Assembly: GCA_934667845.1 (NCBI GenBank)
Contig: CAKUMQ010000009.1
Span: 1,369-65,368 of the forward strand
Reading direction: 5' to 3'
Origin: an uncultured Eubacteriales bacterium
GTDB taxonomy: Bacteria > Bacillota > Clostridia > Oscillospirales > Acutalibacteraceae
DNA: 64,000 bases
The notes below the pieces were generated by a model, which saw nothing but the letters and a program-made list of their open reading frames with translations, had not been told where the DNA came from and did not search any database. A program made the position numbers and the translations under genes. Positions 9,001 through 61,352 of the stretch are shown here, piece after piece; position 1 is the first letter of the stretch, and each line of letters begins with the position of its first letter.

Positions 9001-9136
9001 AAAAGAGGTGGATATCACCGAGCGCGACGCGATCGGGCGGCCGCTGACGGCGGCGGGGAATACCGTGTCGGGCGAGCTTGCGCCGTATGAGATCCGCACG
9101 CTGCACCTCACCTTCGCCGGACAGGCGGAGAAATAA
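6098..9136 (+). CDS. Glycoside hydrolase family 38 alpha-mannosidase
   Basis: 1012 aa. HLVAHSHIDIDWQWDRED is the GH38 metal-site signature. The later segments DTFGHPRTLPQFL and FQFHDTICGCS are typical of the GH38 core. The RBS is AAGGAGAGG. Confidence 0.9.
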   Translation: MTAEELLKARAEALGSAVQSRSDNGNWSYVLNRGETPEEAAFAPVTGTFFPAVEGDVLWLRTAYTVPERAEDLPIAGERIYLTSNVFICAGTVWIDGEKVFDVPYWMDITRPDVTVAEKAEPGRTHTVCIRLTLPRLFTGDGFHYLAHIGCQAADDLAFSVAAFSEELRYAASLPGTQETLDGIRRELCTRIADCPASGLSALLASLRARFEPFRAAAKAHTVHLVAHSHIDIDWQWDREDTYNVARGNFATMTAIMDENPDFRFSQSQPALYHFVEERWPELFAKMQEATARGSWDCSNAARWVESDLNMVDGESLAHGLLYGKRYIREKFGKEPCVCHEPDTFGHPRTLPQFLRKAGVSYFFHMRGEASHIVHWFRAPDGSTLLAVADQHKGVLEIPRLINNALRYERECRLHDSLYMFGVGDHGGGPSRQDIARLARLNESPMMPCLQFSTLEDFFDAVHEQAASADIATLDGELGPVFEGCYTSHADMKDAHRRLENRLLQADAVNFLRVQAGLPADTAAVEALWKLLLEFQFHDTICGCSVHATYERDVPLAEEACAALDAYIDKALRELSGANGDPDRVAVWNLCPFERDEPVRLDRADVHPADADGKPLPCQLIDGGVWFIAEKLPPLSKREYRLLPGAPEAEPLPGTWDCAVETAAFSFRLHPQYGIIERMTDKRGGQKPVFERDFTAEARSGYTYNYDNGVLHLDYELPHPRSAWIIGPVARRETLLEAKPRLIARGAVADVVEVTRKGGHSTFVQRMWFYKSLPRVDFFTDADWQEQGTPDSAAPMLLFSLHPELTGQIRARFSVPGGVHEKAPDGLAHACLSWADVSDENYGFTLCNDNKYGCTVSGATLSMHCLRSSYQPDKIADIGSHRFAFALYPHAGDCRPDKAARQGRAFNSPVRLTPAGDAVPSGLCLHADGAVIGGVKPGEDGGAVVRLYDVCGRGGRFLLTLAAPVKAAKEVDITERDAIGRPLTAAGNTVSGELAPYEIRTLHLTFAGQAEK

Positions 9137-11548: not shown

Positions 11549-11608
11549 AGCGGTATTCCACCTTTCTGAAATGTAAGACAAATCGGTATCGCGGTTTGAT
11601 CTGTGTTC

Positions 11609-11637
11609 AGTATACCACGCGGCGAAAAAAAGTGCAA
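11609..11637 (-). promoter_or_regulatory. Sigma-A promoter for the GH55-like gene
   Basis: The minus strand reads TTGCAC (11637-11632), 17 nt spacer, TATACT (11614-11609), with a TGg extended -10. Confidence 0.5.
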
Positions 11638-11850
11638 GAGGGAATTTGTATTTTCGATAAATGTGGGAAAAGTGTCCATTTTTTGAACGGAACGGGCGAA
11701 AAAGCAAGATCTGCTATAATAGGAAGAATAGGGAAGCGCGCACGGCGGGGCAAAAAACATTTGACAGCCCATTCGGGCGGTTTTTCGGGCGGCGGCGGGT
11801 TAAATTCCGGTAAAATTCAGCGAAAATGCGGATAAAGGCAAAAAAATCCC

Positions 11851-11879
11851 TTGACAACGGAATTGTTTTGGCGTATTAT
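11851..11879 (+). promoter_or_regulatory. Sigma-A promoter for the giant surface-protein gene
   Basis: TTGACA (11851-11856), 17 nt spacer, TATTAT (11874-11879). Confidence 0.55.
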
Positions 11880-17016: not shown

Positions 17017-18645
17017 ATGAAGAAAAAACAGCTGTTGACCGCTCTGCTGGCGGTCGTGATGGCGACGGGCCTGCTGTTTGGCGGATGCCAAAAGGATCCG
17101 GCGGAAAGCTCGGAGGCGGCGGAGTCCACCGCCTCCACCACCGCCGCCGATTCGGCGGATTCCGAAGAGCCGGACAGCACGGATCAGAGTGCGGAGGAGG
17201 ATTCCTCCGCCGAGGATTCCGGTGCTGCGACCACTGCCGAGGAGAGCAAGAATTCCGGCAAAAATACCACCAAGCGAACGTCTGCTTCCACCAAGCAGAC
17301 CGGCGTGGTCGCCGAGGTGGATAAATATGATACGGACGGCCTCAAAACGGTGGATATGAAGGGTTACACCCTGAAGATCGCCTTGACGTCCAAAAGCCTG
17401 ATCAAAAACATGCGCAAAAAGGGCGATAAGGACTATACCGAGCCGAACGAGGCGACCCAACTGCGGTATAATGCGCTTGCCAATGTCGAAAAGCGCTTCA
17501 ACTGCACGATCACACCGGTGTATTATGAGCCGGGCAAGCTGTCGCAGACCTATTCCCAGGCGATCATGGTGTCGGCAACCAACTCGGTGCCGCAGGTGAT
17601 CCTCGGCTCTCTGTGGGAGGCGGGCAACATGATGTCCGCAAAGCTCCTGACCGATTTCGGCCAGCTCAAAAACGTCGATATGTCGAAGCCCTGGTGGAAC
17701 AAGGCCATGGCGGAGGGCAGTAAGATAGGCGGCAAGGTCTATCTCGGTCTGTCGAACATCACCGAGCCGGACGTCCGTTCCTGGTACATCGCTTATAACA
17801 AGAAGATCGCCAAATCGATCGGTCTGACCGATGCCGTCCTGTCGGATATGATCAAGAACAAGACCTGGACGGTCGACAACTTCATCGCCTGGTCGAAAAA
17901 GGCGGTCAAGGACAAAAACGGCGACGGCAAGCTGACCGAAAAGGATCAGTGGGGCTTTGCCGCTCCCGGTACCGACTTTATCTATGCGATGATGGCGTCC
18001 GGCGGCGCTTCGTTCGTGGACGTGGACAAGAGCGGTAAGCGTGTGTACGGTCTGAACAACGATAACGCGATCTCCGTTCTCGAGAAGATCAACAAGATCA
18101 TGTGCACCGAGGGCATCCGCTATCCCGTGACCAACAACAAGGATCAGATGGCGGCGGGCACCGACGGTAAGGTGCTGTTCTGGGGCTATCAGGCGCATTC
18201 CATCCTTTCGAGCATCCGCGAAGAGGGCGATATCGGCATTCTGCCGGTGCCGATCGGCGGCGACCGCAAGGATTATGAGGCGCTGGTCGACCACAACTGC
18301 GCGGCGGCGATGATCCCCTCGACGACGAAGGATCTCGACAAGGTCGGCACGCTCCTCGAGGCGATGTCCTTTGCCTACTGGAAGCTCATCCCCGAGCGGC
18401 TGGAGCTGTATAAGGAGCTGTATCTCGAAGAGGGCGACACGCTCAGCCTGTCTGTCGTGGATGGCGTGTTTGACCGCATGAACTGCTACGCTTGGGAATT
18501 CGACAACACGTCGGCGTTCCTCAAGAGCACCGTTCAGCCGATCCTTGACGCCTGCACCAAGGCGAATGCCGAGATCTCCGGCACCGTGGCGGCGATCAAG
18601 AATCCCTCGCAGGCAACCATCAACAATTTCTACGGGCAGAAGTAA
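17017..18645 (+). CDS. ABC transporter extracellular solute-binding lipoprotein (sugar/oligosaccharide type)
   Basis: 542 aa. The lipobox is LLFGGC, followed by an acidic S/E/D/A/T linker. The body is family-1 SBP-like (KPWWNKAMAEGSKIGGKVYLGLSN, DQWGFAAPG). Confidence 0.85.
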   Translation: MKKKQLLTALLAVVMATGLLFGGCQKDPAESSEAAESTASTTAADSADSEEPDSTDQSAEEDSSAEDSGAATTAEESKNSGKNTTKRTSASTKQTGVVAEVDKYDTDGLKTVDMKGYTLKIALTSKSLIKNMRKKGDKDYTEPNEATQLRYNALANVEKRFNCTITPVYYEPGKLSQTYSQAIMVSATNSVPQVILGSLWEAGNMMSAKLLTDFGQLKNVDMSKPWWNKAMAEGSKIGGKVYLGLSNITEPDVRSWYIAYNKKIAKSIGLTDAVLSDMIKNKTWTVDNFIAWSKKAVKDKNGDGKLTEKDQWGFAAPGTDFIYAMMASGGASFVDVDKSGKRVYGLNNDNAISVLEKINKIMCTEGIRYPVTNNKDQMAAGTDGKVLFWGYQAHSILSSIREEGDIGILPVPIGGDRKDYEALVDHNCAAAMIPSTTKDLDKVGTLLEAMSFAYWKLIPERLELYKELYLEEGDTLSLSVVDGVFDRMNCYAWEFDNTSAFLKSTVQPILDACTKANAEISGTVAAIKNPSQATINNFYGQK

Positions 18646-18653
18646 AGCCTGTG

Positions 18654-18732
18654 GCCTTTGGGGCGGGCGACGGTCGAAAGGCCGCCGCCCGCCCGTTTCA
18701 AAGCCCGCCCCCTTGCGGGGCGGGGCTTTGAA
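18654..18732 (+). terminator. Two consecutive GC-rich stem-loops after the first binding-protein gene
   Basis: Stem 1 is GGGCGGGCG...CGCCCGCCC followed by GTTTC. Stem 2 is CAAAGCCCGCCCC-ttgc-GGGGCGGGGCTTTG. The T-tracts are weak, so termination may be partial. Confidence 0.5.
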
Positions 18733-18863
18733 AACGGCGCGTAGATGCTGCGGGTATAGTTTAAGGTATCCGAATCCGGCGGGGCTGCTGTTTTGCGGAA
18801 TGCCCGGCTCGGATACCTTAGGATATACCCCATACCCCACCCCAGTTCCCTCGGAAAGGAAGG

Positions 18864-21725
18864 ATGGAAGTCGTGAAAAAACAGGTACTCACCTTTCTGA
18901 CAGCGGCGGCCCTGCTTTGCACGCTGCTGCCGGCGGTGCAGCCGACGGCGGCGGAAGGTGCTAAGACGGCGGATCAGACGGCGGCTGCGGCGCAGGATGC
19001 GGCTGCGGCGGAGAATTACGCCGTCTATGCCGCGGAAAACGCCGATAAGCCTGCGGCAGTGCAGACCGTCGCCGTGGAGGCGGAGAGCGCACAGATCGTC
19101 TCCGGCGATGCCGCTGTGCGGCAGGAAAGCGGATGCAGCGGCGGCGCCGCACTGGCGACGGAGGAGGGTTCGGTCATCCGGCTGACGGTGACGGTTCCCG
19201 CCGACGGGCGCTATACGCTGACCCTGCGCGTGTCGACCGAGGCTGCCAAACGGGCGGCGGCGCACCGCGCGCTGACGGTCGACGGCGAAACGCCGTTTCC
19301 CGAACTTTCCGAGCTGACGTTCACCCGCTACTGGTGTGATGTGCTGGAAAACGGGGAGTTTCAGAAGGACAAAAGCGGCAACCAGCTGCGGCCGGATACC
19401 GAGAGCAAAATTGTGTGGCAGGATCAGCGGCTGGATGCCGCGTCCGGCGCGCCCTATGCGCTGTATCTGACGGCGGGCGAACACACCTTTACGCTGACCG
19501 CCACCCGTGAGCGGCTCGTGATCGACACGCTGACGCTGGCGCCCGAGCCGGTAATGCCCGCCTATGCCGAAGTGAAGCAGGGGTGGGACAACGCGGGCTA
19601 CACCTTTGCGGGAACGGAGGCGGATCTGACACTCGAGGCGGAAAAGCCGACAGCCAAATCGGAAAATTCGCTCTATCCCCGTTCCGACCGCTCCTCTGCG
19701 GCGACAAAGCCGCAGTCGGCGGAGGGGCTGACGCTCAACGCGATCGGCGGCTCGAACTGGAAGACCGTCGGACAGTGGATCAGCTGGACGGTCAACGTGA
19801 AAAAGTCCGGACTGTACCATATCGGCGTCCGCTATAAGCAGAATGCGCTGCGCGGCGTGTTTGTCAGCCGTGAGCTGACGATCGACGGGACGCTTCCCTT
19901 TGCCGAGGCGGCGCGACTGCGCTTTTCCTATGGCGGGCGGTGGCAGAGCACGGTCTTGTCCGATGAGGCGGGCGAGCCGTATGCGTTTTATCTGTCCGAG
20001 GGCAGACACACGCTGACCATGCGGGTGGTGCTCGGCGACACCTATGAGCTGACCGAGCAGGTCAGCGAGATCCTGACCGCCTTAAACCGCGATTACCGCG
20101 GCATCCTGTCCGTGACGGGCAGCAGCCCCGATGTCAACCGCGACTATAACTTCCCCGATGTGATCCCCGATGTGCTGGCGAATCTTGCCAAGCAGCAGAA
20201 GGCGCTCGCCAAAGCCGCCGAAACGCTGCATGCGATCACCGGTCAGTCGGGACAGATGCTCTCCACCCTTCAGACAATGGAGCAGCAGCTGGAGCGGATG
20301 ACGGCACGTCCCTATCGGATCGCACGGGAGTTTAAGACCTTCAAGAGCAACATCAGCTCGCTCGGCGACTGGGTGAAGAATATGACCGACCAGCCGCTGC
20401 TTTTGGATACGATCACGCTGCAGAGCGAGGAGAGCAAGCCGCTGCGCGCCGAGGCGAGCTTCTGGGAGAGCCTGTCCTTCAACACGGCGCTGTTTGTCAA
20501 CTCCTTCACGCAGGATTACCGCATCGCCGATACGGCGGACGAGGATCCGCTGGAGGTGTGGGTGCCGACCGGCCGCGATCAGTACCAGATCGTGCGGACG
20601 CTGGCGGAGAATGATTTCACCGTCAAGACCGGCAAGGCGGTCAACGTGCGCCTGGTGGCGCCGACCGCGCTGCTGCCGTCGACACTGGCGGGACGCGGAC
20701 CCGACGTCGCGCTCTCCAATGCGCAGCATGTGCCGGTGGACTATGCACTGCGCGGCGCCGTGCTGCCGCTCAACGGCTTTGCGGACGCCGGGGAGATCTA
20801 CGGGCGCTTTTCCGCCGGTGCGCTGACGCCGCTCACCTATGAGGGCAAGGTCTACGGCCTGCCGGAAAATCAGACGTGGCCGATGATGTTTGTCCGCCGC
20901 GACGTGTTCGACGAGCTGGGCGTGTCGGTCCCCGAAACCTGGGATGAGCTGCTGACGCTGCTGCCGACGCTCGGCCGCCGCAACCTCGAATTCGGTATGC
21001 TCGTCGGCTACGCGGGCTATCTCCAGATGCTCTATCAAAACGGCGGTACGCTCTACACCGCAGACGGCTATCACACCGCGCTCGGCACCAACGAGGGGGT
21101 CGGCGCGTTCAAAAAGCTGTGCGATCTGTTTACGCAGTATAAGCTGCCGATCACCTACGATGCCGCCAACCGCTTTCGCTCCGGCGAAATGCCGCTGCTT
21201 GTCGCGGATTATGCGTTTTACAACCAGCTGACCGTGTTTGCTCCCGAGATCAGCGGACAGTGGGAGATGACGTCGGTGCCCGGCACCGTGAAGACAGACG
21301 GCAGCGTTGACCGCACCGTCGTCGCGACCTCCACTGCCTGCATCATTATGGCGCAGACGGATAAGCCGAACGACGCATGGGCGTTTTTGAAGTGGTGGAC
21401 GTCGACCGAGGCGCAGGTCAGCTTCGGCACCGATATGGAGGCGGTCTTGGGCCCCTCCGCGAAGCAGCCGACCGCGAATGTTGAGGCGGCGTCCCTGCTG
21501 CCGTGGTCCACGGCGGAATATGCGGCGCTGCGTAAGCAGCAGGAGACGGCAGTGGGCATCCCGACCGTCCCGGGCTATTATCAGGCGGAGCGTCTGATCG
21601 GCTTTGCGTTCAACGACGTCTACAACAACAATTCCAACCCGCGCAACGAGCTGCTCGACTGCCTGCACAGCATCGACACCGAGCTGCTCCGCAAATACGA
21701 CGAATTCCATTCGTCCAAGCCGTGA
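18864..21725 (+). CDS. Large extracellular solute-binding protein with two N-terminal CBM6/35-like modules and a helical linker
   Basis: 953 aa. The signal peptide is (M)KKQVLTFLTAAALLCTLLPAV. Two roughly 150-aa modules have the pattern A.EAE...(RYTLTLRV / LYHIGVRY)...TIDG..PF. A coiled region follows (aa 400-470). The C-terminal half is SBP-like (YEGKVYGLPENQTWPMMFVRRDVF, WAFLKWWTS). An alternative start is GTG 18873, which has better RBS spacing. Confidence 0.85.
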   Translation: MEVVKKQVLTFLTAAALLCTLLPAVQPTAAEGAKTADQTAAAAQDAAAAENYAVYAAENADKPAAVQTVAVEAESAQIVSGDAAVRQESGCSGGAALATEEGSVIRLTVTVPADGRYTLTLRVSTEAAKRAAAHRALTVDGETPFPELSELTFTRYWCDVLENGEFQKDKSGNQLRPDTESKIVWQDQRLDAASGAPYALYLTAGEHTFTLTATRERLVIDTLTLAPEPVMPAYAEVKQGWDNAGYTFAGTEADLTLEAEKPTAKSENSLYPRSDRSSAATKPQSAEGLTLNAIGGSNWKTVGQWISWTVNVKKSGLYHIGVRYKQNALRGVFVSRELTIDGTLPFAEAARLRFSYGGRWQSTVLSDEAGEPYAFYLSEGRHTLTMRVVLGDTYELTEQVSEILTALNRDYRGILSVTGSSPDVNRDYNFPDVIPDVLANLAKQQKALAKAAETLHAITGQSGQMLSTLQTMEQQLERMTARPYRIAREFKTFKSNISSLGDWVKNMTDQPLLLDTITLQSEESKPLRAEASFWESLSFNTALFVNSFTQDYRIADTADEDPLEVWVPTGRDQYQIVRTLAENDFTVKTGKAVNVRLVAPTALLPSTLAGRGPDVALSNAQHVPVDYALRGAVLPLNGFADAGEIYGRFSAGALTPLTYEGKVYGLPENQTWPMMFVRRDVFDELGVSVPETWDELLTLLPTLGRRNLEFGMLVGYAGYLQMLYQNGGTLYTADGYHTALGTNEGVGAFKKLCDLFTQYKLPITYDAANRFRSGEMPLLVADYAFYNQLTVFAPEISGQWEMTSVPGTVKTDGSVDRTVVATSTACIIMAQTDKPNDAWAFLKWWTSTEAQVSFGTDMEAVLGPSAKQPTANVEAASLLPWSTAEYAALRKQQETAVGIPTVPGYYQAERLIGFAFNDVYNNNSNPRNELLDCLHSIDTELLRKYDEFHSSKP

Positions 21726-21739
21726 AAGGAGGGCGTATC

Positions 21740-22645
21740 ATGAAAAGATCCAAACTCGCGCGCAGTCGCGCTGCCGCGGAAAATGCCAAAAGCTACGCCC
21801 TGATCGCGCCGTATATGCTGATCTTCTTCACGTTCAGCGTGCTGCCGGTGCTGATCGCCATCTTTTTCAGCTTCACCCGCTTCAATATGCTGCAGGCGCC
21901 GCAGTTCATCGGCTTTGCCAACTATGTGCGGATGTTCGGCTCGGACGATGTGTTCTATACCGCGCTGAAAAACACGCTGTTCATGGCGGTCATCGTCGGC
22001 CCGGGCGGCTATCTGCTCAGCCTGTTCTTCGCCTGGATGATCAACGAGCTGTCCGACCGGCTGCGCCCGTTTGTGACGTTTCTGTTCTATGCGCCCTCCA
22101 TCTCCGGCAACGTCTATCTGATGTGGACGGTGCTGTTCAGCGGCGATATGTACGGCTATATCAACGGTATGCTGCTGAATCTCGGCGCGATCAGCGAGCC
22201 GATCCAGTTTTTGAAGAACACCAAATATATGATGACGATCGTGCTGATCGTCTCCCTGTGGGCAAGCCTCGGCACGAGCTTTCTGACCTTTGTCGCCGGC
22301 TTTAAGGGCATCGACCGCCAGTATTACGAGGCGGGCATGATCGACGGCATCTCCAACCGCTGGCAGGAGCTGTGGCATATCACGCTGCCGATCATGCGGC
22401 CGCAGATGCTGTTCTCCGCCGTTATGTCCATTTCCGGCGCGTTCGGCGTCGGCGCGATTTCGACGGCGCTGTGCGGCTTCCCCTCCAATAAATATGCGGT
22501 ACATACACTGATGAACCATCTGACCGACTACGGCGGACTGCGGTATGAGATGGGCTACGCCTGCGCGCTGGCGACGCTGCTGTTTGTGATGATGGCAGGG
22601 TTTAACATGCTGGTGCAGCGGCTGATTTCGAAGGTAGGTGAATGA
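21740..22645 (+). CDS. Carbohydrate ABC transporter permease (MalF/UgpA-like)
   Basis: About 300 aa with six TM segments. The EAA-loop region is YYEAGMIDGISNRWQELWHITLP. I prefer ATG 21740 (AAGGAGGG RBS) to the ORF-track GTG 21722. Confidence 0.85.
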   Translation: MKRSKLARSRAAAENAKSYALIAPYMLIFFTFSVLPVLIAIFFSFTRFNMLQAPQFIGFANYVRMFGSDDVFYTALKNTLFMAVIVGPGGYLLSLFFAWMINELSDRLRPFVTFLFYAPSISGNVYLMWTVLFSGDMYGYINGMLLNLGAISEPIQFLKNTKYMMTIVLIVSLWASLGTSFLTFVAGFKGIDRQYYEAGMIDGISNRWQELWHITLPIMRPQMLFSAVMSISGAFGVGAISTALCGFPSNKYAVHTLMNHLTDYGGLRYEMGYACALATLLFVMMAGFNMLVQRLISKVGE

Positions 22646-23532
22646 GTATGACAGGATCTGCGGTCAAATCGCGCCGCCATCATCGGTATGCGCTGAAAAA
22701 CCGGTCGCTTGTGGGCAGCATACTGAATCTGCTGTTTTTGCTGTTCATGGCGATATTCATGGTGCTGCCGCTCGTGTACACCATCTGCACCTCCATCAAG
22801 CCGCTCAATGAGCTGTGGATCTATCCGCCGCGCTTTTTGGTGACTAACCCGACATTCGACAATTTCCGCGATCTGATGACGCTGATGAACGACGCGACCG
22901 TGCCGCTGTCGCGCTATCTGTTCAACACCGCATTTATTGCGGTGATCGGCACGGCGGGCAACGTCATTTTCTCCTCTATCTGTGCCTATGCGTTTTCCAT
23001 GCGGCAATTTCCCGGGAAAAAGGTGATCTTCAGGATCGTCGTGCTGACGCTGATGTTCAACACCGCCGTCACCCAGATCCCGACGTTTCTGATCATCTCC
23101 TCGCTCGGCTGGCTGGATACCTACCTTGCCTATATCATCCCGGCGTTTGCGACCCCGATGGGACTGTACCTGATGCGCCAGTTTATGGATCAGATGGTGC
23201 CGTATTCCATTATCGAGGCGGCAAAGCTGGACGGCGCGGGCGAGCTGACCATCGTGTTCCGCCTCGTGATGCCGATCGTGCGCTCCGCGTGGATCACGCT
23301 GATCATCTTCTCGTTCCAGGCGCTCTGGGCGGTGGGTGAAAACACCTATATCTACGCCGAGAGCATGAAGACCTTCAACTATGCCCTCCAGCAGATCCTG
23401 GCAGGCGGCGTGGCGCGTGCCGGCATCGGCGCGGCGGCCGCCGTCGTGATGATGGCTGTGCCCGCCGTGGTGTTCATCGTGTCCCAGAGCAACGTTCTGG
23501 AGACGATGGCGACCTCCGGCATGAAAGACTGA
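22642..23532 (+). CDS. Carbohydrate ABC transporter permease (MalG/UgpE-like)
   Basis: 296 aa. The EAA loop is IIEAAKLDGAGELTIVFRLVMPIV. An ATGA overlap joins it to the upstream permease. Confidence 0.9.
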   Translation: MSMTGSAVKSRRHHRYALKNRSLVGSILNLLFLLFMAIFMVLPLVYTICTSIKPLNELWIYPPRFLVTNPTFDNFRDLMTLMNDATVPLSRYLFNTAFIAVIGTAGNVIFSSICAYAFSMRQFPGKKVIFRIVVLTLMFNTAVTQIPTFLIISSLGWLDTYLAYIIPAFATPMGLYLMRQFMDQMVPYSIIEAAKLDGAGELTIVFRLVMPIVRSAWITLIIFSFQALWAVGENTYIYAESMKTFNYALQQILAGGVARAGIGAAAAVVMMAVPAVVFIVSQSNVLETMATSGMKD

Positions 23533-25688
23533 TGAGACAGCGGAAAGGCGGGAACGGAACCATGAGAACACTATTCCGACGGGCAGCGGCGCTTTTGGCC
23601 GGACTGCTCCTTGCCGCGGCGCTGCCGGTGTCGGCGTATGACGGCTATATCTATTCCAGCGAGGGCAAATGGCAGAAATCGGTGCCGCTGTATCAGCCGA
23701 CACGGCGCATCGAGCTGTCGGCGGAGCTGAAAACGCCGATGACCGAGGCGGTGGACATGTGCTACGGCCCGGACAACGCCCTTTATGTGGCGGATCACGG
23801 CACGAACCGCGTGCTCGTGTTTGACGACAGCTTCCGCTTTACGCGGGAGATCACGGGCTTCACCGCGGCGGACGGCAGTGCGGACAGCTTCAGCGGTCCG
23901 TCCGGCGTATTTGTCGACAGTGAGAACCGCCTGTATGTGGCGGATACCGAAAACAACCGTGTGGTGGTGCTGTCGCCCGAGGGGAAACTGGTGCGCATTG
24001 TCGGGGCGCCCACCGGCACGGGTATTCCTGCGGAATTTCTGTATAAGCCCGTTTCGGTGACGGCGGACGCCGCGGGCCGCATCTATGCGGTGTCGCAGTC
24101 CTCCAATATGGGCGTTTTGAGCTTTGACCCGAACGGCGAATTTGAAAACTTCATCGGCGTGCAGAAGGTGACCTACTCGACGTCGGAGCTTTTCTGGCGG
24201 TCGCTGATGACCGAGGCGCAGCGCGAGCGCAGTGTGCAGAACATCCCGGTGGATTTCAACGATATCGAGATGGACAGCGAGGGCTTCCTGTTCGTGACCT
24301 CGGCGGCGATCGACAAATCCAAGCAGTATTCGGCGCTGGTCGGCAGAAGCACCACGAGCGACTATGCGCCGGTGAAGCGGCTCAACACTTCGGGCGACGA
24401 TATTTTAAAGCGCAACGGCTTTTTCCCGCCGGCGGGCGATCTGGATATCGACACCACCAAAAAGATCGACCGCGCCGTGTCGGCGTTTGCCGGTGTGACG
24501 GTAAACGATCTGGGACTGTATACCGTGCTCGACAGCACGGCGCAGCGGCTGTTCACCTATGACGGGAACGGCAGCCTGCTCGGCGTCTGCGGCGGGATCG
24601 GCACCTCGATCGGTCAGTTCATGTCTGCGACCGCCGTCGCCTACAAGGGACATTCCCTGACGGTGCTCGACGATACCGCGGGTGTGCTGACCGTGATGGC
24701 GCTGTCGGATATCGGCAAAAAGATCGAAGAGGCGATCGCGCTGCAAAATGATCTGCTGTTTGACGAGGCGCTGAAAAAGTGGGAGGAGATCCTGCCGCTC
24801 GACCGCAATCTCGACAGCATCTACATGGATATGGGCGACGCCTATCTGCGCGAGGGCAGCTATGATCTCGCTATGCAATTTTTTGAGACGATCGGCGACA
24901 AGGAATCCTATTCCGACGCATTTTCCCGCAAGCGGGCGGACTATGCCGGCTGGGTGGTGCTCGGACTGCTGGTCGGCGTGTCGGCGTTTTGCGTGCTGCT
25001 CTCCTTTGTGCTGAAAAAGCTCGCGGCGGTCAACCGGGCGGACGATCTGAACCCGCCCGAGAGGATCGGGGTCAAAAAGCAGCTGTGCTATGCGGTGTAT
25101 CCGCTGTTCCACCCGATCGACGGCTTCTATTGCATCAAGCGGCAGAAACGGGGCAATACGGCGGGCGCGCTGATCATCATGGCGGCGGCTGCGCTGTCCT
25201 ATCTCATCAACCGCTATCTGTCCGGGTACATCTTCTCGGCGGATATGATGGCGGACACCAACTACCTCAGGGATGCCGTCCAGTTTCTGATGCCGTTTCT
25301 GCTGTTCATCGTGGCAAACTACTGCATCACGAGCCTGTTTGACGGCGAGGGCAGCTTCCACGACATCTTCGTGACGGTCGGCTACGCCATGCTGCCGCTG
25401 CCGCTGCTGCTTCTGCCGACGACCGTGATGTGCAATGTGCTGTCCGCAGAGGAGAGCATGATCGTCAGCCTGCTGACGACAGTGGCCTACGGCTGGACGA
25501 TCGGGCTGATCTTCCTCGGCATGACCTCGATCCACCACTACGGTCCCGGGCGCAATCTCGCGGCCATGCTGATGTCCGGGCTCGGGATGCTGGTGATCAC
25601 CTTCCTGCTGTTGCTGTTTGCCTCACTGACCCAGAAGCTCGGCATGTTTATTCACAACGTGATCGTCGAGCTGTCTTACCGCTTATAA
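23532..25688 (+). CDS. Membrane protein: signal peptide, NHL-repeat beta-propeller, TPR-like segment, C-terminal Yip1-type 5-TM domain
   Basis: 718 aa. NHL-like blades include NALYVADHGTNRVLVFD, NRLYVADTENNRVVVLSPEGK and GRIYAVSQSSN. The TPR-like stretch is MDMGDAYLREGSYDLAMQFFE. A TM segment comes next, then a Yip1-like polytopic region (YPLFHPIDGFYCIKRQKRGN...). It overlaps the upstream stop by 1 nt. An alternative start is ATG 23562. Confidence 0.8.
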   Translation: MRQRKGGNGTMRTLFRRAAALLAGLLLAAALPVSAYDGYIYSSEGKWQKSVPLYQPTRRIELSAELKTPMTEAVDMCYGPDNALYVADHGTNRVLVFDDSFRFTREITGFTAADGSADSFSGPSGVFVDSENRLYVADTENNRVVVLSPEGKLVRIVGAPTGTGIPAEFLYKPVSVTADAAGRIYAVSQSSNMGVLSFDPNGEFENFIGVQKVTYSTSELFWRSLMTEAQRERSVQNIPVDFNDIEMDSEGFLFVTSAAIDKSKQYSALVGRSTTSDYAPVKRLNTSGDDILKRNGFFPPAGDLDIDTTKKIDRAVSAFAGVTVNDLGLYTVLDSTAQRLFTYDGNGSLLGVCGGIGTSIGQFMSATAVAYKGHSLTVLDDTAGVLTVMALSDIGKKIEEAIALQNDLLFDEALKKWEEILPLDRNLDSIYMDMGDAYLREGSYDLAMQFFETIGDKESYSDAFSRKRADYAGWVVLGLLVGVSAFCVLLSFVLKKLAAVNRADDLNPPERIGVKKQLCYAVYPLFHPIDGFYCIKRQKRGNTAGALIIMAAAALSYLINRYLSGYIFSADMMADTNYLRDAVQFLMPFLLFIVANYCITSLFDGEGSFHDIFVTVGYAMLPLPLLLLPTTVMCNVLSAEESMIVSLLTTVAYGWTIGLIFLGMTSIHHYGPGRNLAAMLMSGLGMLVITFLLLLFASLTQKLGMFIHNVIVELSYRL

Positions 25689-25706
25689 AAAGGAGGGCTG
25701 ATCCGT

Positions 25707-28310
25707 ATGAAATGCAAAAAAGCGGCTGCTTTGCTGCTGGCGCTTTGCCTTACAGCCGGCGGGCTGTCGGGCTGCCAAAACGGCAAGCACGCGAAAAAAG
25801 CGTATCCGGACTGGGTGCCGCAGACGGACTTTGACGCGCCCTCCATGGGCTGGGTGACGGTGGACGAGCAAAACGGCACCAAGCTGGAGATCGAGCCGGC
25901 GTCGTTTGCCATCCGGCTGACGCGGGGCGATACGGTCTGGGAAAGCCGTGACGAATCCGGCGACGAAGCCGAGGAGAACACGGCGTATGATTCGCCGCTC
26001 GTGCTGTACGGCTTGGAGATCGGCGGCGACGAGTTCGTGCTGGACGCCAATGTGTCCTGCATCCAGAAGGCGCAGTATGAGGTGACGATCGAAAACGGGC
26101 GTGTCAACGCCGTGTTCACCATCGGCACCCTCTCCACCCGCCTTCTGGCGCCGCAGGTCATCCGTGCAAGCGAGATGGAAAGCAAAATTTTTGCCCATTT
26201 GGACGAATCGGACTTGACCTATTTCGCAAAAAGGTATACTCTATACTCTAAGGAGGATTACCCCGAGGAGGACGCCGCCTATGCGGCGCTCAAAGAGCAG
26301 TATCCGATCATTGAAAAGAGCGACCTGTATGTTCTGCGCTCCGGCGTCGGCACACGGGAGAAAAACAAGCTGACCGAGATGACGCGCGAGGCGGGCTTTA
26401 CCGAGGAGATGCTCGATGCCGAATATGCGGCGATCGGGTTTGAGGATGAAACGGCGAAATCGGTGCCGCTGTTTGAGGTGCCGCTGACGCTGTATCTCGA
26501 CAAGGGCGACCTCGTGGCGGCGATCGACGCGGAGAACATCCGCTTTGACACCTCCGCCTTTGTGCTCAACCGCATCGACGTGCTGCGCAACCTCACGGCG
26601 TGTGACCGCGGCGTTGGCAAGGAGCTGTTTTTGCCGGACGGCACCGGTGCGGTCGTGGATCTGACGCGGGAGAATTACCGGCTCGGCAAGATCACCCGCA
26701 CCGTCTACGGCGACGGATTTGATCCCGCGGGCAGCTACGGCAGCGAGAGCGCGTCGTTCCCCGTGTTTGCCATGGAGCGCGAAAATGCGGCGCTGCTTGC
26801 CGTGCTTGAGCAGGGCGAAGCCATGGCGGAGATCACCGCCTCCTATGCGGGCGCCGTGGCAGGCGTCTGGCCGAGCTTTGTGCACCAGGCGATGTATAAC
26901 TCCTATGCGCAGGACGGCTGGAACAATATCGTGATGAACAGCTATAACCCCGAGCTGCCCGGCGACGTGACGTTTGCCGTGCGCTACCGGCTGCTTGGTG
27001 AGACCGGGTATGCGGCGCTGGCGAACAGCTACCGCGACTACCTCGCGGAAACGGGCGCGTTCGGCGGGACAAAGGCGGACGACACCCTGCCGTTTTATGT
27101 CGAAACGCTCGGCAGCGTCGATGTCCGTGAGCGGGTGCTGGCGTTTCCGGTCGAGCATGAGGTGGCGCTGACCACCTATGATCAGGATGCGGAGCTGATC
27201 CGCCGCGTGGCGGACGCCGGTGTGAAAAATGCCGTATTCCGGCTGACCGGCGCACTCAACGGCGGATTGATGAACAAGCCCGGCAACAAGAGCCGCCTGT
27301 GCGGCGTGCTGGGCAGCCATGCGGACTGGAACCGCCTGCTGGAAACGGCAAAGGAGGCGGGCATCAGCGTGTACCCCGACGTCGTGTTTGACGCCGTGAC
27401 AAAGGATGGTTGGTTTGACGGCTTTGGTGCGACAAGCGATGCGGCGCGCGGGCTGAATGAGCGGTATCTGAGCCGCTCGGTCATCAACCGCGCGACCGAC
27501 GAGCCGGAGACAGATGCCTATGCCTATATCGTGCGCCCGACCCGCGTATCGGACTATGTGCGGAGCTTTTTGAAAAAAGACCGGCTCTGCACCGATGCGA
27601 TCGCGGTCGGCGGCCTTGCCCAGATGCTGGCGGAGAGCCACACGTCTCAGGTACATATCAACCGCGCCGAAAGCAAGCAGCAGATCGTCTCCAGTTTGCA
27701 GGCGCTGTCCGAGAATCACAGCCTGCTGCTGACCGGCTGCAATGCCTATGCGCTGCCCTATGCGGCGCACCTGACGGGGCTGCCGACGACAAGCTCGGAA
27801 TACGCCGATTATGCGCAGAGCGTGCCGTTTGCGGCGATGGTGCTCCACGGCAGCAAAAACTACGCGCTGACGGCGCTCAACCGTGAAGCAGATACCGAGA
27901 CCGCCGTGCTCAAAGCGATCGAATACGGCAGCGGCGTGTCGGTGGTGCTGGCACAGCAGAATACCGAAAAGCTGCGCTCGACCGCCTATTCCTATTATTA
28001 TTCCGTCGACGCGGACTACTGGCTCGACAAGGCGATTGCCGCCTATGAGCGGGTGCAGGTTGCGGTCGGCGATGTCTGCGGCGAGGCGATCGTCGATCAC
28101 CTGACGGTGGCAGACGGCGTAACGCTGACCGTCTATGCGGGCGGCAAGCAGATTCTGGTCAACTACAACGAAAAGCCGGTGACGGTGGCGGGCGTGACGG
28201 TGGCTGCGCGCGACTATGCGGCGGCATCGCTGACCGAGGCGCAGCGCGCGGCGCTGCGTGCCCCGGCGACAGCCGACGCGTCCGCCGACGGAGAGGAGGG
28301 AGCAAGATGA
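25707..28310 (+). CDS. Large lipoprotein of unknown function (possible uncharacterised glycan-processing enzyme)
   Basis: 867 aa. The lipobox is GGLSGC and the RBS is AAGGAGGG. I see no catalytic signature by eye. From memory, proteins like this next to Yip1 proteins carry a DUF label, but I cannot verify that here. Confidence 0.8.
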   Translation: MKCKKAAALLLALCLTAGGLSGCQNGKHAKKAYPDWVPQTDFDAPSMGWVTVDEQNGTKLEIEPASFAIRLTRGDTVWESRDESGDEAEENTAYDSPLVLYGLEIGGDEFVLDANVSCIQKAQYEVTIENGRVNAVFTIGTLSTRLLAPQVIRASEMESKIFAHLDESDLTYFAKRYTLYSKEDYPEEDAAYAALKEQYPIIEKSDLYVLRSGVGTREKNKLTEMTREAGFTEEMLDAEYAAIGFEDETAKSVPLFEVPLTLYLDKGDLVAAIDAENIRFDTSAFVLNRIDVLRNLTACDRGVGKELFLPDGTGAVVDLTRENYRLGKITRTVYGDGFDPAGSYGSESASFPVFAMERENAALLAVLEQGEAMAEITASYAGAVAGVWPSFVHQAMYNSYAQDGWNNIVMNSYNPELPGDVTFAVRYRLLGETGYAALANSYRDYLAETGAFGGTKADDTLPFYVETLGSVDVRERVLAFPVEHEVALTTYDQDAELIRRVADAGVKNAVFRLTGALNGGLMNKPGNKSRLCGVLGSHADWNRLLETAKEAGISVYPDVVFDAVTKDGWFDGFGATSDAARGLNERYLSRSVINRATDEPETDAYAYIVRPTRVSDYVRSFLKKDRLCTDAIAVGGLAQMLAESHTSQVHINRAESKQQIVSSLQALSENHSLLLTGCNAYALPYAAHLTGLPTTSSEYADYAQSVPFAAMVLHGSKNYALTALNREADTETAVLKAIEYGSGVSVVLAQQNTEKLRSTAYSYYYSVDADYWLDKAIAAYERVQVAVGDVCGEAIVDHLTVADGVTLTVYAGGKQILVNYNEKPVTVAGVTVAARDYAAASLTEAQRAALRAPATADASADGEEGAR

Positions 28311-29224
28311 GCAAACCGAGCAAACCGAAAAACCTGTCGCTTGACAAGCGCATGGCCAAGCACGGCTGGGTATTTATCAGCCCGCTGGTCATCGGCTTCG
28401 TCGTGTTTTATGCGGATATCCTGCTCCAGTCGCTCCGCTTCGCCTTTTCGGAGGTCACCCCCGGCGACGGCATGGTTAACACGGCGTTTGCCGGTCTGAC
28501 CCATTTCCACCGCGCGCTGTTCGTGGAAAACGACTTCGTGCGCAGCGTGGTGCAGAGCGCCTGGCAGACGCTGTACAGCGTGCCGCTGGTCATCATTTTC
28601 AGCCTGTTCGTGGCGACGCTGCTCAGCCGCAAGCTGCCGGGGCGTTCGCTGTTCCGTGCGATATTCTTTATCCCCGCCGTGCTGGTGACGGGCGCGATCG
28701 CCGCCTCCACCTCGGGCAATGCACTGTCAAATGCGATGAGCGAGATGGGCGGCATCACGACGGGCGCGACGGCGGACACCTTCCGCATCGAGGATCTGCA
28801 GAGCCTGTTCGGCGCCGCCGTGCTGAATGACGGACTGTTTTCCTATATCCTCAGCGCGATCAACAACATCTTCAACGTGATCAAGCAGTGCGGCGTGCAG
28901 ATCCTGATCTTCATCTCCGGCCTGCAGGCGATCAACCCGTCTGTCTATGAGGCGGCGTCCATCGAGGGCGCCAACGGCTGGGACTGCTACTGGAAGATCA
29001 CATTCCCGCTGATCGGGCCGATGATCCTGGTCAACGCGGTGTACACGGTGGTGGATTCCTTTACCGCCGCCAACAACCAGATCATGACGATGGTCAATGA
29101 CCTCGGCGTGGCACAGATCGGCTATGCCTCGGCGATCGCATGGATGTATTTCGTGCTGATCCTGCTGGTGCTGCTGATCGTGGTGGTCTTTTTGAAGCTC
29201 ACCGTGCTGCGCAGCACGCGATAA
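28307..29224 (+). CDS. Carbohydrate ABC transporter permease (second pair, MalF-like with extended loop)
   Basis: 305 aa. The EAA loop is VYEAASIEGANGWDCYWKITFPLIGP. An ATGA overlap joins it to the upstream lipoprotein gene. Confidence 0.85.
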   Translation: MSKPSKPKNLSLDKRMAKHGWVFISPLVIGFVVFYADILLQSLRFAFSEVTPGDGMVNTAFAGLTHFHRALFVENDFVRSVVQSAWQTLYSVPLVIIFSLFVATLLSRKLPGRSLFRAIFFIPAVLVTGAIAASTSGNALSNAMSEMGGITTGATADTFRIEDLQSLFGAAVLNDGLFSYILSAINNIFNVIKQCGVQILIFISGLQAINPSVYEAASIEGANGWDCYWKITFPLIGPMILVNAVYTVVDSFTAANNQIMTMVNDLGVAQIGYASAIAWMYFVLILLVLLIVVVFLKLTVLRSTR

Positions 29225-29240
29225 AGGAGGGCGAACGGTA

Positions 29241-30185
29241 ATGACAACGGCAAAACGGGCGCTCCACCGTGTGCGGGCGCGGTATATGTCCTATCTGGTG
29301 ACGATATTCAAGGTTCTGCTGCTGGTGGAGCTGTCCTTCACGATCCTCTACCCGCTCTTTTCCCAGCTCGCCACCACCTTTATGACCCAGAGCGATCTGG
29401 TGGATAAGACGGTCGAGTTTTTCGCCAAGGAGCCGACGCTCGACAACTACCGCTATCTGGCGGAGTACACCGACTACTGGGTGGCGCTGCGCAACTCCGT
29501 GATCCTGTGTGTGACCGTCGGGCTTCTGACGACGCTTTGCGCGGCGCTCTGCGGCTACGGCTTTTCGAAGTTCTCCTTCAAAGGGCGCACGCTGATGTTC
29601 GGCATCGTGCTGTTATCCATCATCGTGCCGCCGCAGACGATCCTGCTTTCCCTGTATACAAAGTTCCGGTATTTTGACATATTCGGCATCCTGCGGCTGT
29701 GCGGCGTGAAGTCGCTGCCCAACCTGACCAACGGCGGCTTCCTTCCGGTGGCGCTTTTGTCCGTGACCGGCTTCGGCTTCCGCGGCGGACTGTTCATCTT
29801 CCTGATGCGGCAGTTTTACAACGGCATCCCGAAGGAGCTGATGGAGGCGGCGTATGTGGACGGCGCCAACGTCTATCGCACCTATTTCAGCGTGATCTTC
29901 CCGCAGGGGCGGACGCTGATGGTGACGGTATTCCTGCTGTCGTTCTCCTGGATGTGGACGGATACGTTTTATGCCAACGTGCTCTATTCCGGCTATGACA
30001 TTGTCGCCCGTATTGTTTCTACGGCTCGCTATATGTCTGGCCTCGGTGTGACGCAGGGCACGCTGACCTCCGGCATGTATATCAACACCGCCACCATGAT
30101 GCTGCTGGCGCCGCTGCTTCTGGTGTTCATCTTCGGACAGAAGCTGATGGTGGAGGGTATCGAAAACAGCGGCATTGTCGGCTGA
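29241..30185 (+). CDS. Carbohydrate ABC transporter permease (second pair, MalG-like)
   Basis: 314 aa. The EAA loop is LMEAAYVDGANVYRTYFSVIFPQG. The RBS is AAGGAGGG. Confidence 0.9.
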   Translation: MTTAKRALHRVRARYMSYLVTIFKVLLLVELSFTILYPLFSQLATTFMTQSDLVDKTVEFFAKEPTLDNYRYLAEYTDYWVALRNSVILCVTVGLLTTLCAALCGYGFSKFSFKGRTLMFGIVLLSIIVPPQTILLSLYTKFRYFDIFGILRLCGVKSLPNLTNGGFLPVALLSVTGFGFRGGLFIFLMRQFYNGIPKELMEAAYVDGANVYRTYFSVIFPQGRTLMVTVFLLSFSWMWTDTFYANVLYSGYDIVARIVSTARYMSGLGVTQGTLTSGMYINTATMMLLAPLLLVFIFGQKLMVEGIENSGIVG

Positions 30186-30227: not shown

Positions 30228-31289
30228 ATGAAAAAATACGAGCGGATCTACGATGATTTCAAAGCCGCCATCTACAACGGCGAGTACAAGGCGGGGGATA
30301 AGCTGCCCACCGAGGAGCAGATCGCCGCGAAATACGGCGTTTCCCGCGTGCCGGTTCAGCAGGCGATGAATGCGCTGATCGGCGGGAAGATGGTCAAGCG
30401 CGTCATCGGCTCGGGTACGTTTGTGACCTTTGAATCCCATCTGGCCATGACCAAAAACCGCAATGCGGTCTTTCTGCTCAACGAGATCGACCCCGAGACG
30501 GCGCAGATCGTTGAGGGAGCGCAGCGCGTGCTGCATAAACGCGGTATCTTCCTCTCCACCCGCTATTCCGGCGAGGATTTCGACAGAGTGGAGCAGGAGG
30601 TGCTGGAACAGCTCAAAAACGATGAGATCGCAGGGCTGATGATCTATCCGATCGACTCCAACAAGCGGATCGACCTGATGTATGAGCTGGTGCGGGACAA
30701 AAAGCCGCTGGTCTTTGTGGATAAGCTGCCGAACAATCTGCCCGCCAACTGCGTGATGTCCGATCCCATCTCCGCCATGGATCAGATGGTGGGCCATCTG
30801 GTAGAGCACGGACACCGGCGCATCGCCTTTGTCGGCCATGATCCGGTCAGCCGGTCCTCTGTCGGCCAGCGCCTGCGGATGGCGGCGATCGCCATGCACA
30901 GCCGCGGACTGGAGCTGCCGCAGGAATATGTCCGCTGCACCGGCAACGCCTACACGGATACGCTGGCGCTGCTGGATCTGCCCCATCCGCCGACCGCGGT
31001 CGTCTACTGCGCCGCCGTCAGTCTCTACACCTCCTATCAGGCGTATTCCCGCCGCGGCGTGCGGATCCCCGAGGACATTTCCGTGATGGCGCACGATGAC
31101 ATCACCCGCTACTGGGATGCGGTCGGGCGCAAGATCAGCTGCGTGCGGCAGGATTATGACGGCATCGGCGAGGCGGCTGCGAAGCGGCTGTACCAGTATC
31201 TGGTCAAGCCGGACGGCCACAACATTGTCGAATATGTGCCGACAGCCTTTGCGGATTACGGGTCGGTGCGGACGCTGAACGCGGAGTAA
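30228..31289 (+). CDS. AraR-type transcriptional regulator (GntR winged-helix N-terminus plus LacI/PBP1 sugar-binding domain)
   Basis: 353 aa. GDKLPTEEQIAAKYGVSRVPVQQAMNALIGGKMVKRVIGSGTFV is a GntR HTH. A periplasmic-binding-protein-like fold follows (RIAFVGHD..., AVVYCAAVSLY). Confidence 0.85.
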   Translation: MKKYERIYDDFKAAIYNGEYKAGDKLPTEEQIAAKYGVSRVPVQQAMNALIGGKMVKRVIGSGTFVTFESHLAMTKNRNAVFLLNEIDPETAQIVEGAQRVLHKRGIFLSTRYSGEDFDRVEQEVLEQLKNDEIAGLMIYPIDSNKRIDLMYELVRDKKPLVFVDKLPNNLPANCVMSDPISAMDQMVGHLVEHGHRRIAFVGHDPVSRSSVGQRLRMAAIAMHSRGLELPQEYVRCTGNAYTDTLALLDLPHPPTAVVYCAAVSLYTSYQAYSRRGVRIPEDISVMAHDDITRYWDAVGRKISCVRQDYDGIGEAAAKRLYQYLVKPDGHNIVEYVPTAFADYGSVRTLNAE

Positions 31290-31304: not shown

Positions 31305-32051
31305 ATGAAGATTCTGCTGTTTTCGGATGTGCATGCCAATATTGACGCACTGCAGGCGCTGGAAAGTGCCGAAAAGCACTGGGACGAGGCGTGGTTCCTC
31401 GGCGATATGGTGGACTACGGCTTCCATCCGCACGAGGTGATCGCCTGGATGCGGGAGCACGAGGTCAAAGCGGTGATGGGCAACCATGACCGCCGCCTGA
31501 TCAACGAGTGGGACAGCGGCGCGCCCTGCCCGCCCCCGGAGGCGGCGGAGCGCTTTATCGACTACGACCGCGCGCTGGTCACGGCGGAGGATATCGCCTG
31601 GCTGCGCACGCTGCCGGAGGAACGCCGGCAGACGGTGGACGGCATCCCCTACTATATGGCGCATTCCTATGATGTACACGACCAGCAGCGGGCGCTGGAG
31701 GAGCAGGTCGCTTTCCGCTCCGGCCGCTTTTTTGAGCAGGTCTGGCGGGAGAAGATGGGCGAGGATGTGCCCGGCGAGCCCCGCCGCATCCTCTACGGAC
31801 ACACCCATCAGTGTACGGCGCTGTATGTCCGCGCCGGGGCGATGCTGCTGAATCCCGGCAGCCTGTCCTACCGGCTCGGGCCGGACGGCTGCTGCAAGGG
31901 CGGCAGTTATATGCTGATCGAGGACGGCGAGGTGAAGATGCGCTATCTCACCTATGACACGTCCCGCCTGCTGGCGATCGCGGAGGCGTCGTCGCTCAAG
32001 GGCTCGGAGATCGGCAACGCGCGGGTGTTTTTCTCGCCCGAAAAGCTGTAA
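31305..32051 (+). CDS. Metallophosphoesterase (YfcE/MJ0936-like)
   Basis: 248 aa. It has the motifs SDVHAN, GDMVDYG, GNHD and GHTH in the canonical order. Confidence 0.85.
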   Translation: MKILLFSDVHANIDALQALESAEKHWDEAWFLGDMVDYGFHPHEVIAWMREHEVKAVMGNHDRRLINEWDSGAPCPPPEAAERFIDYDRALVTAEDIAWLRTLPEERRQTVDGIPYYMAHSYDVHDQQRALEEQVAFRSGRFFEQVWREKMGEDVPGEPRRILYGHTHQCTALYVRAGAMLLNPGSLSYRLGPDGCCKGGSYMLIEDGEVKMRYLTYDTSRLLAIAEASSLKGSEIGNARVFFSPEKL

Positions 32052-33354: not shown

Positions 33355-33431
33355 ATTAGCATAGACGGGCAGAAAATACAAGTGCATTTTTCCTGCGCGT
33401 GGTTGTTTACTCTAAGAAGGAGGAAAACGGA

Positions 33432-37273: not shown

Positions 37274-37290
37274 CAAAAGCAGCTCCTTTC

Positions 37291-39183: not shown

Positions 39184-39277
39184 GCGTGCAGTCAACACCT
39201 TTCTGTTAGTTGCTTTCCCCAGCGCGGCGGAAAGCACGTTCACGCCGCCATTACCCTATGTGCGGCATAACATATCC

Positions 39278-61266: not shown

Positions 61267-61295
61267 TCGGCTGCCGCCTCCTTTCTTTTGACAGA

Positions 61296-61330
61296 CCTTT
61301 TGCCCTGTTTCGGTGAAACAGGGCAAAAGG
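61296..61330 (-). promoter_or_regulatory. Intercistronic stem-loop between pstS and pstC
   Basis: A perfect 16-bp stem, CCTTTTGCCCTGTTTC-nnn-GAAACAGGGCAAAAGG, with no T-tract. Confidence 0.6.
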
Positions 61331-61352
61331 GAAAGATGGGGGAATGAAGAAA

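Follow-up and report, generated by a model that had tools for sequence, protein, structure and literature searches.

The 64,000-nucleotide (nt) stretch analysed here, hereafter the window, covers positions 1,369 to 65,368 of contig CAKUMQ010000009.1 (assembly GCA_934667845.1) and derives from an uncultured Eubacteriales bacterium of the Acutalibacteraceae. It carries seven tightly packed open reading frames (ORFs), all on the plus strand, between positions 18864 and 30185, which encode a giant solute-binding protein (SBP), two ABC permeases (P1 and P2), an NHL-TPR-Yip1 membrane protein, a DUF5696 lipoprotein and a second permease pair (P3 and P4). The best explanation of this arrangement, held with slightly better than even confidence, is a glycan-uptake cassette of Firmicutes that consists of two modules and is driven by a shared ATPase. 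Its building blocks are all of known kinds, while the fixed architecture of seven to nine genes is undescribed in the literature searched, where no mention of DUF5696, PF18952 or this gene combination was found.

The cassette opens with the gene of the giant SBP (18864-21725), followed by those of P1 (21740-22645), P2 (22642-23532), the 718-amino-acid (aa) NHL-TPR-Yip1 protein (23532-25688), the 867-aa DUF5696 protein (25707-28310), P3 (28307-29224) and P4 (29241-30185). Neighbouring genes overlap by ATGA at 22642 and at 28307 and by a single nucleotide at 23532; the remaining core junctions are gaps of 14-18 nt. An AGGAGG-type Shine-Dalgarno sequence lies 5′ of every start where any Shine-Dalgarno sequence is visible. 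An earlier reading, made from the letters alone (the sequence-only reading), had proposed seven packed same-strand genes with these domains, and ORFs, junctions and Pfam matches confirm the proposal. The overlaps it listed hold, and two of its gaps are off by a trivial amount (18 nt rather than 19 before 25707, and 16 nt rather than 17 before 29241). Its limit of seven genes was too narrow, as a second solute-binding lipoprotein (SBP2, 17017-18645) belongs to the unit, judging from a hidden Markov model (HMM) grouping and from the SBPs that flank the cassette in 37 of 70 loci. SBP2, a 1672-aa surface protein further upstream (11980-16998) and the two-module substructure had all been overlooked. 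The proteins of the window are about 97% identical to those of a human-gut metagenome-assembled genome, 'Clostridia bacterium HGM12789'.

The same gene order is conserved in distant relatives. Among 185,579 species genomes (GTDB species level) scanned with the DUF5696 protein as anchor, at least 499 encode a relative, and the best 80 of these loci were examined with 10-kb flanks by running iterated HMMs of the window proteins against six-frame ORFs. Wherever the contig is long enough, giant SBP, P1, P2, NHL-TPR(+Yip1), DUF5696, P3 and P4 follow one another on one strand, at an identity to the window protein of only 23-31% and with a giant SBP of about 940-1230 aa. The hosts are Bacilli (Paenibacillus, Cohnella, Saccharibacillus, Lederbergia and 'Bacillus' caseinilyticus) and Clostridia (Butyrivibrio, Lachnospiraceae, Acetatifactor, Oscillospiraceae, Flemingiibacterium and Faecalibacterium sp. 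CAG:74). Conversely, metagenome contigs were scanned with the NHL-Yip1 protein as anchor, which returned at least 576 relatives; the best 80 of these loci display an identical order where the contig permits, with the exception of one locus (L122) that is considered below. The arrangement thus recurs in about 150 independent loci, i.e. beyond chance, with median intergenic distances of 1-17 nt. The sequence-only reading had suggested that the two proteins of unknown function are stoichiometric partners of the transporter rather than passengers, and had named a lack of permease synteny in other genomes as the finding that would speak against this. The order kept in both the genome and the metagenome scans confirms permease synteny for both genes. 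Across 160 loci they are conserved partners of the permeases; a stoichiometric ratio would go a step beyond this.

Several genomes carry two cassettes, namely Cohnella luojiensis (L062, L074), Ruminococcaceae HGM13222 (L021, L068) and Bacillota AS02xzSISU_7 (L037, L051), which suggests paralogues of differing specificity. The DUF5696 family itself comprises 5,761 clusters at 50% identity (E <= 1e-3, among 1.84 billion representatives).

Within the conserved order, two blocks of genes can be distinguished by their rates of change. Pairwise-distance (mirror-tree) correlations, obtained from 104 complete cassettes with contrasts bootstrapped over loci, place the N-terminal and C-terminal halves of the giant SBP, P1 and P2 in block A, and NHL, Yip1, DUF5696, P3 and P4 in block B. 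The raw correlation is 0.94 between NHL and DUF5696 (partial 0.37), 0.93 between DUF5696 and P3, and 0.66 between the C-terminal half of the SBP and P4. DUF5696 correlates better with P3 than with P1 by 0.11 (0.076 to 0.144 on bootstrapping), and the C-terminal half of the SBP better with P1 than with P3 by 0.115 (0.066 to 0.165). The rates of SBP2 lean weakly to block B. In the only rearranged locus (L083), the order is NHL/Yip1-DUF5696-P3-P4 followed by SBP-P1-P2, and the break falls exactly between the two blocks. These observations support, without deciding the matter, a cassette of two co-inherited modules, one made of the giant SBP with P1 and P2, and the other of NHL/Yip1 with DUF5696, P3 and P4.

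All four permeases exceed the Pfam cut-off for BPD_transp_1. P1 is MalF/UgpA-like and P2 MalG/UgpE-like; P3 is MalF-like with a long extracytoplasmic insert, and P4 is MalG-like. The motif EAA..G.........I.LP is conserved in each of the four classes (77-80 sequences per class), and retention of this ATPase-docking motif implies that each pair is competent as a channel of a type I importer. Alignment of P1 with P3 is confined to the surroundings of the EAA motif, and P2 is 24% identical to P4, a divergence that rules out a recent duplication of one permease pair; the pairs are anciently distinct. BPD_transp_1 subunits with EAA loops, together with SBPs, are defining features of importers, and their presence also rules out an exporter or a polysaccharide-secretion system.

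No ABC ATPase is encoded in the cassette or next to it. The sole ORF of the 64-kb window with both a Walker A and an LSGGQ motif lies at 58796-59752 on the minus strand and is part of an unrelated system. This minus-strand ABC system (58149-63891) is located outside the cassette and combines an ATPase-like ORF (58793-59647) with two weak BPD_transp_1-like ORFs (59547-61326); further unannotated minus-strand ORFs are found there at 58149-58793, 61353-62249 and 62359-63891 (510 aa). Among 87 homologous loci, an ABC-ATPase-like ORF occurs within 10 kb in only three, is adjacent in none, and is absent from the other 84. It is established in Firmicutes that one 'multitask' ATPase, such as MsmX or MsmK, serves many type I sugar importers (PMC7658222, PMC5730181). 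The sequence-only reading was right that the cassette has no ATPase of its own, and the absence, which it had treated as a peculiarity, is therefore ordinary. By analogy with these importers, an MsmX-type ATPase supplied in trans is assumed.

The giant SBP of the window (953 aa) combines a signal peptide lacking a lipobox with two CBM35-like modules (carbohydrate-binding modules, CBMs), a helical coiled-coil stalk and, within the last 400 residues, an SBP_bac_1 domain, as read from Pfam and PDB matches. SBP_bac_1 is matched at residues 577-851, alongside a weak Pfam match to CBM35, and the best PDB match, to the C-terminal domain, is the SBP Lin1841 (E 1.5e-16). A profile of the N-terminal half finds CBM35 twice (5x7g, E 2.4e-8; 2vzp, E 0.005), ahead of the coiled-coil helices. 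No lipobox is present in 65 of 72 homologues, which have a plain signal peptide and no other transmembrane (TM) segment. Such a plain signal peptide is unusual for a Gram-positive SBP. SBP2, by contrast, is a lipoprotein of conventional size (542 aa, plus strand, lipobox FGGC). It is a divergent SBP that matches the arabino-oligosaccharide SBP AbnE weakly (6rjy, E 5e-7) and that iterated HMMs group with the SBPs flanking other cassettes. A conventional same-strand SBP (443-677 aa) adjoins the core in 37 of 70 loci and is missing from the remaining 33. It is a lipoprotein in 39 cases out of 44; in Bacilli its gene precedes that of the giant SBP, and in Lachnospiraceae it follows P4.

The 718-aa protein joins a predicted extracellular propeller to a membrane domain. 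Its Yip1 domain (PF04893) scores 44.7 bits against a cut-off of 28.6, its NHL match reaches 57.6 bits in Pfam with two repeats passing individually, and TPR matches are found in the PDB. Residues 66-211 match six-bladed NHL domains of known structure, the nearest being sensor-type and TRIM-type propellers, PknD (1rwi) included. By hydropathy, the protein is organized into a signal peptide, an ectodomain of about 430 aa with NHL and TPR, one TM helix, a cytoplasmic loop and a five-TM Yip1 domain. Five hydrophobic segments follow the linker TM helix, and homologues display patterns of five to six TM segments, always with a TM helix behind the NHL ectodomain. The invariant motifs (the loop FHPFDGFWDLKHEKRG, LFDGEG and H668) lie on the predicted cytoplasmic side. 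In about 30 genome loci the protein is split into separate, overlapping genes for an NHL-TPR-TM protein and a Yip1 protein of about 206 aa; elsewhere it is fused, as in the window. The literature searched for Yip1 together with ABC, SBP or GH (glycoside hydrolase), and for NHL with Yip1 and permease, yielded nothing relevant. The claim of the sequence-only reading that no bacterial Yip1 protein has an assigned role is nonetheless too broad. In Bacillus, the way in which the ABC transporter YknXYZ assembles is modulated by YknW, a Yip1 protein (PMC4887032, citing Yamada et al. 2012).

The 867-aa protein matches DUF5696 (PF18952) over profile positions 11-612 of 612 with 443.4 bits (cut-off 25.6, E 1.8e-132); NCBIfam has no model for it. 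The sequence-only reading had called it a lipoprotein, and a lipobox (LSGC) is indeed present in the window, although only about a third of the homologues are lipoproteins, the others having a plain signal peptide and no C-terminal anchor. An AlphaFold2 (AF2) model with a predicted local distance difference test score (pLDDT) of 73.8 and a predicted template modelling score (pTM) of 0.73 retrieves, in Foldseek, DagB (5opq, E 1e-27) and NagBb (5wzp, E 2e-21), and then GH101, GH36 and GH31 enzymes. A profile of 63 DUF5696 sequences matches NagBb with an E-value of 1.8e-9. Alignment by hhalign to a Bifidobacterium GH129 reference, rebuilt from the frameshifted contigs L088 and L089, gives a probability of 99.1% over 552 columns, and Bifidobacterium GH129 fragments carry precomputed matches to both PF18952 and PF12905 (GH101). 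Profiles and the predicted fold thus identify DUF5696 as a remote GH129/GH101 homologue, with a predicted N-terminal β-sandwich, TIM barrel and C-terminal β domain. Among the 63 sequences, which share about 25% identity, the polar residues D311 (within the N-domain motif PDGSGA), N725 and E739 are invariant, and D337, the D644 column, R653, N679, Y681 and H798 reach at least 90% conservation.

Two side observations concern GH129 and DUF5696 genes. In two ENA gut contigs, Bifidobacterium-type (NagBb-like) GH129 genes (L088:470-2368 and L089:94-1154) are split by frameshifts into three to four ORFs, probably through assembly error at low coverage (about 1.7-2x). In the metagenome loci L119, L121, L153, L154 and L159, the DUF5696 ORF is, at 1485-2015 aa, about double the normal size and presumably includes extra domains. 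The giant SBP is extended to about 1300 aa in L121, L153 and L159, measures 1158 aa in L154, and is truncated by the contig end in L119.

In the mechanism proposed for the two-module cassette, module A would act as a type I (CUT1-like) ABC sugar importer with a secreted SBP of about 950-1200 aa. This giant SBP may capture a polymer or long oligosaccharide via its CBM35-like modules and deliver ligand to P1/P2. Module B would contribute a second channel, P3/P4, that appears to co-evolve with two extracytoplasmic proteins. DUF5696 most likely acts at the surface of the membrane, where it would trim or cleave the glycan that has been captured. NHL-TPR-Yip1 is most likely an assembly or tethering subunit that holds the unanchored soluble parts near the channels, by analogy with YknW. 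SBP2, where present (in about half of the loci, the window included), probably feeds P3/P4, and a shared MsmX-type ATPase encoded elsewhere would energise both channels. Substrate specificity presumably differs between copies of the cassette. The sequence-only reading had imagined an extracellular capture and processing machine that hands its products to the permeases; the two CBM35-like modules and the GH129/GH101-like fold fit this picture, and the hand-over itself would be an extrapolation from them.

Several points weigh against the two-module mechanism. The points that we infer are that the parts form a physical complex, that DUF5696 is catalytic, that NHL-TPR-Yip1 tethers, and which ATPase and substrate are involved. 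Phylogeny and shared substrate both confound the mirror-tree correlations, whose differences are modest (0.04-0.15). The loci examined were the 80 best among at least 499 hits in one scan and among at least 576 in the other, so that distant members of the families might occupy other contexts. L122 (1-14183) has P1-P2-NHL/Yip1 followed by unrelated minus-strand genes in place of DUF5696-P3-P4, which could reflect decay of the copy, rearrangement or a chimeric assembly. The single-sequence AF2 model of NHL-Yip1 reaches a pLDDT of only 40.7. The region of the GH129 nucleophile (NagBb Asp435, DagB Asp486) aligns loosely, with gaps and at low confidence. An Asp column conserved at 90% or more (D644 in consensus numbering; the window protein has E643/S644) falls within a few residues of the nucleophile in this gapped, low-confidence alignment, and global and local hhalign runs return the same low-confidence alignment around strands β-4 and β-5. 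The acid/base Glu478 of NagBb has no counterpart in DUF5696, aligning beside GGN679AY, where no acidic residue is found. Likewise, the His and Asp of the NagBb HLDGW motif, which are Ala in the 5wzq quadruple mutant and are read here as metal-associated, are absent from the DUF5696 consensus 'ytGWaNGG'; what the literature reviewed says is only that Ca2+ supports GalNAc recognition (PMC8106489). With these mismatches, DUF5696 is a putative enzyme.

These differences at the aligned acid/base and metal-site positions are what would favour DUF5696 as a non-catalytic, glycan-binding or structural protein with a 'dead' GH fold. Acidic and polar residues are invariant in a very divergent family, however. 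DagB shares only the nucleophile with NagBb and is active without its acid/base, relying on an essential Asp of the N-terminal domain (PMC5698469), which parallels the invariant N-domain D311 and makes a shifted catalytic set in DUF5696 plausible. A dead enzyme is thus considered unlikely. The NHL-TPR-Yip1 protein could, for its part, be a sensor or regulator whose propeller senses glycan and whose conserved Yip1 cytoplasmic face gates the transporter or the ATPase. The resemblance of the NHL domain to sensor-type and TRIM-type propellers such as PknD would fit, as would the mapping of FHPFDGFWDLKHEKRG, LFDGEG and H668 to predicted cytoplasmic loops. The protein has no signalling output domain, though, and a dedicated transcription regulator already adjoins the cassette. 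The strongest co-evolution of NHL is with DUF5696, which points to an extracellular partner, and a sensing role appears very unlikely.

The remaining alternatives concern how closely the parts work together. They might be co-regulated and physically independent, i.e. two ordinary ABC sugar importers, a secreted or anchored glycosidase and a membrane protein that share a substrate pathway and form no supercomplex. Stand-alone precedents exist for every component, the neighbours are the GHs and regulators typical of polysaccharide utilization loci (PULs), and the canonical second SBP in 37 of 70 loci means that each channel could own an SBP. PULs normally shuffle their gene content and order, however, whereas the cassette keeps an invariant order and close spacing in two Firmicutes classes, at identities of about 25%. 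P3/P4 are intact with EAA motifs even in the 33 loci lacking a second SBP, and most giant SBPs lack a membrane anchor. A loose collection of parts is accordingly doubtful. At the other extreme, DUF5696 and the NHL-TPR ectodomain could dock directly on P3/P4, organized by the Yip1 domain, so that glycan captured by the CBM-bearing giant SBP is cleaved at the transporter mouth and its products are passed on unreleased. Such a glycosidase-coupled importer is a tentative elaboration, to which a rather low probability is given. Between these extremes, the two-module cassette with a shared ATPase is retained as the preferred reading.

The transcription unit may extend from 11980 to about 32051, given the promoter, surface protein and SBP2 upstream of the core, and the regulator and metallophosphoesterase downstream of it. 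A possible operon start is marked by a σ70-like promoter, TTGACA-17-TATTAT, on the plus strand at 11851-11879 (11 of 12 matches, a consensus match only). The plus-strand ORF of the 1672-aa surface protein (11980-16998) ends 18 nt 5′ of the SBP2 gene. Behind a signal peptide, this protein has about seven β-sandwich-like modules, each with a terminal 'GWN(H/E/Y/Q/T)' motif, and five helical repeats of about 60 aa (DAIGDVTLDS...). Its C-terminus, NPNTG followed by a hydrophobic TM segment and RRRR, resembles a sortase-type sorting signal. Pfam returned only weak, non-significant matches (Laminin_G_3, MAM), and a PDB sequence search was empty. It is probably a glycan-capture protein of the cassette operon, to which its position would assign it. 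Between SBP2 and the core lies a 218-nt plus-strand spacer (18646-18863) with two GC-rich hairpins, GGGCGGGCGACGG...CCGCCGCCCGCCC and AAAGCCCGCCCC-CTTGC-GGGGCGGGGCTTT. They could act as an attenuator, or stabilise the mRNA, and so set the expression ratio of SBP2 to the core. Downstream of P4, a domain search identifies a transcription regulator with a GntR-type helix-turn-helix (HTH) and a LacI-type sugar-binding domain (30228-31289, plus strand), likely the local regulator of the cassette. A regulator of the GntR/LacI type is also found near the cassette in locus L007. In the window, the regulator gene is followed on the same strand by that of a metallophosphoesterase (31305-32051, domain search) whose membership of the unit is uncertain.

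Flanking genes vary from locus to locus and include GH10, GH53, GH43, GH78, GH123, GH26, GH130 and GH13 enzymes, ROK kinases, GFO/IDH/MocA oxidoreductases and various regulators. This variation suggests that the cassette is a platform re-used for different glycans. The window encodes two GH38 α-mannosidases, at 6098-9136 and 39812-42397 (both plus strand), which may suggest mannose-containing glycans as its substrate. A rhamnogalacturonase-A/pectate-lyase-like protein (9212-11707, minus strand) and a double GDSL esterase (33399-35417, plus strand) are also present, and the region from 6 to 42 kb looks like a glycan utilisation island. Inside the island, and unrelated to the cassette, a [FeFe]-hydrogenase large subunit and a NuoF-like flavoprotein subunit are encoded at 35534-39243 (minus strand); this pair is probably an electron-bifurcating hydrogenase.

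Firmicutes of gut and soil, among them Lachnospiraceae, Oscillospiraceae and Paenibacillus, have a major part in the degradation of glycans from diet and plants, and it is poorly understood how these bacteria, which have no outer membrane, retain polymers and couple surface hydrolysis to uptake. The cassette, common (about 5,700 DUF5696 clusters) and rigidly organized, is a candidate for an unstudied glycan-uptake machine and gives a testable model of a dedicated complex for capture, processing and import. It also provides a probable fold and function class for the Pfam family DUF5696 and, beyond the case of YknW, suggests what Yip1 proteins may do in bacteria. Should its components assemble into a single machine, the cassette would stand for a new class of ABC importer architecture, in which enzyme and scaffold subunits are built in. 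If the glycosidase-coupled form were true, Gram-positive bacteria would have a functional counterpart to the Sus-like complexes for capture and import, and a role of Yip1 in nutrient import would be defined for the first time.

Among known systems, the cassette resembles the CUT1 importers energised by MsmX or MsmK, such as AraNPQ, GanSPQ and YesOPQ of B. subtilis, with an SBP, MalF- and MalG-like permeases that carry EAA motifs, and an operon devoid of an ATPase (PMC7658222, PMC5730181). It differs from them in having two permease pairs in one operon, an SBP of 950-1200 aa with CBM35-like modules and no lipid anchor, and obligatory NHL-TPR/Yip1 and DUF5696 genes between the permease pairs. 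Surface capture by CBMs, a glycosidase, an importer, a local regulator and copy-dependent specificity are also reminiscent of Gram-positive PULs and, functionally, of the Bacteroidetes Sus system. The resemblance to Sus is functional only, as domains of the TonB-dependent transporter SusC and of SusD were not found at the locus, and nothing described among PULs or Sus systems corresponds to the fixed core of seven genes with its Yip1 protein. In YknWXYZ of B. subtilis, a Yip1 membrane protein is likewise encoded with an ABC transporter, whose assembly it is needed for or modulates (PMC4887032). However, YknYZ belongs to the MacB-type exporters and has a membrane-fusion protein, unlike the importer permeases with which Yip1 is genetically associated in the cassette; there the Yip1 domain is fused to, or adjoins, an extracellular NHL-TPR region. 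Finally, DUF5696 shares a three-domain fold and detectable homology with the GH129 α-N-acetylgalactosaminidase NagBb, the GH129-like 3,6-anhydro-D-galactosidase DagB and GH101. In contrast to these enzymes, to which it is about 15% identical, DUF5696 is extracytoplasmic, is always encoded between permease genes, and has its own invariant residues, D311, N725 and E739.

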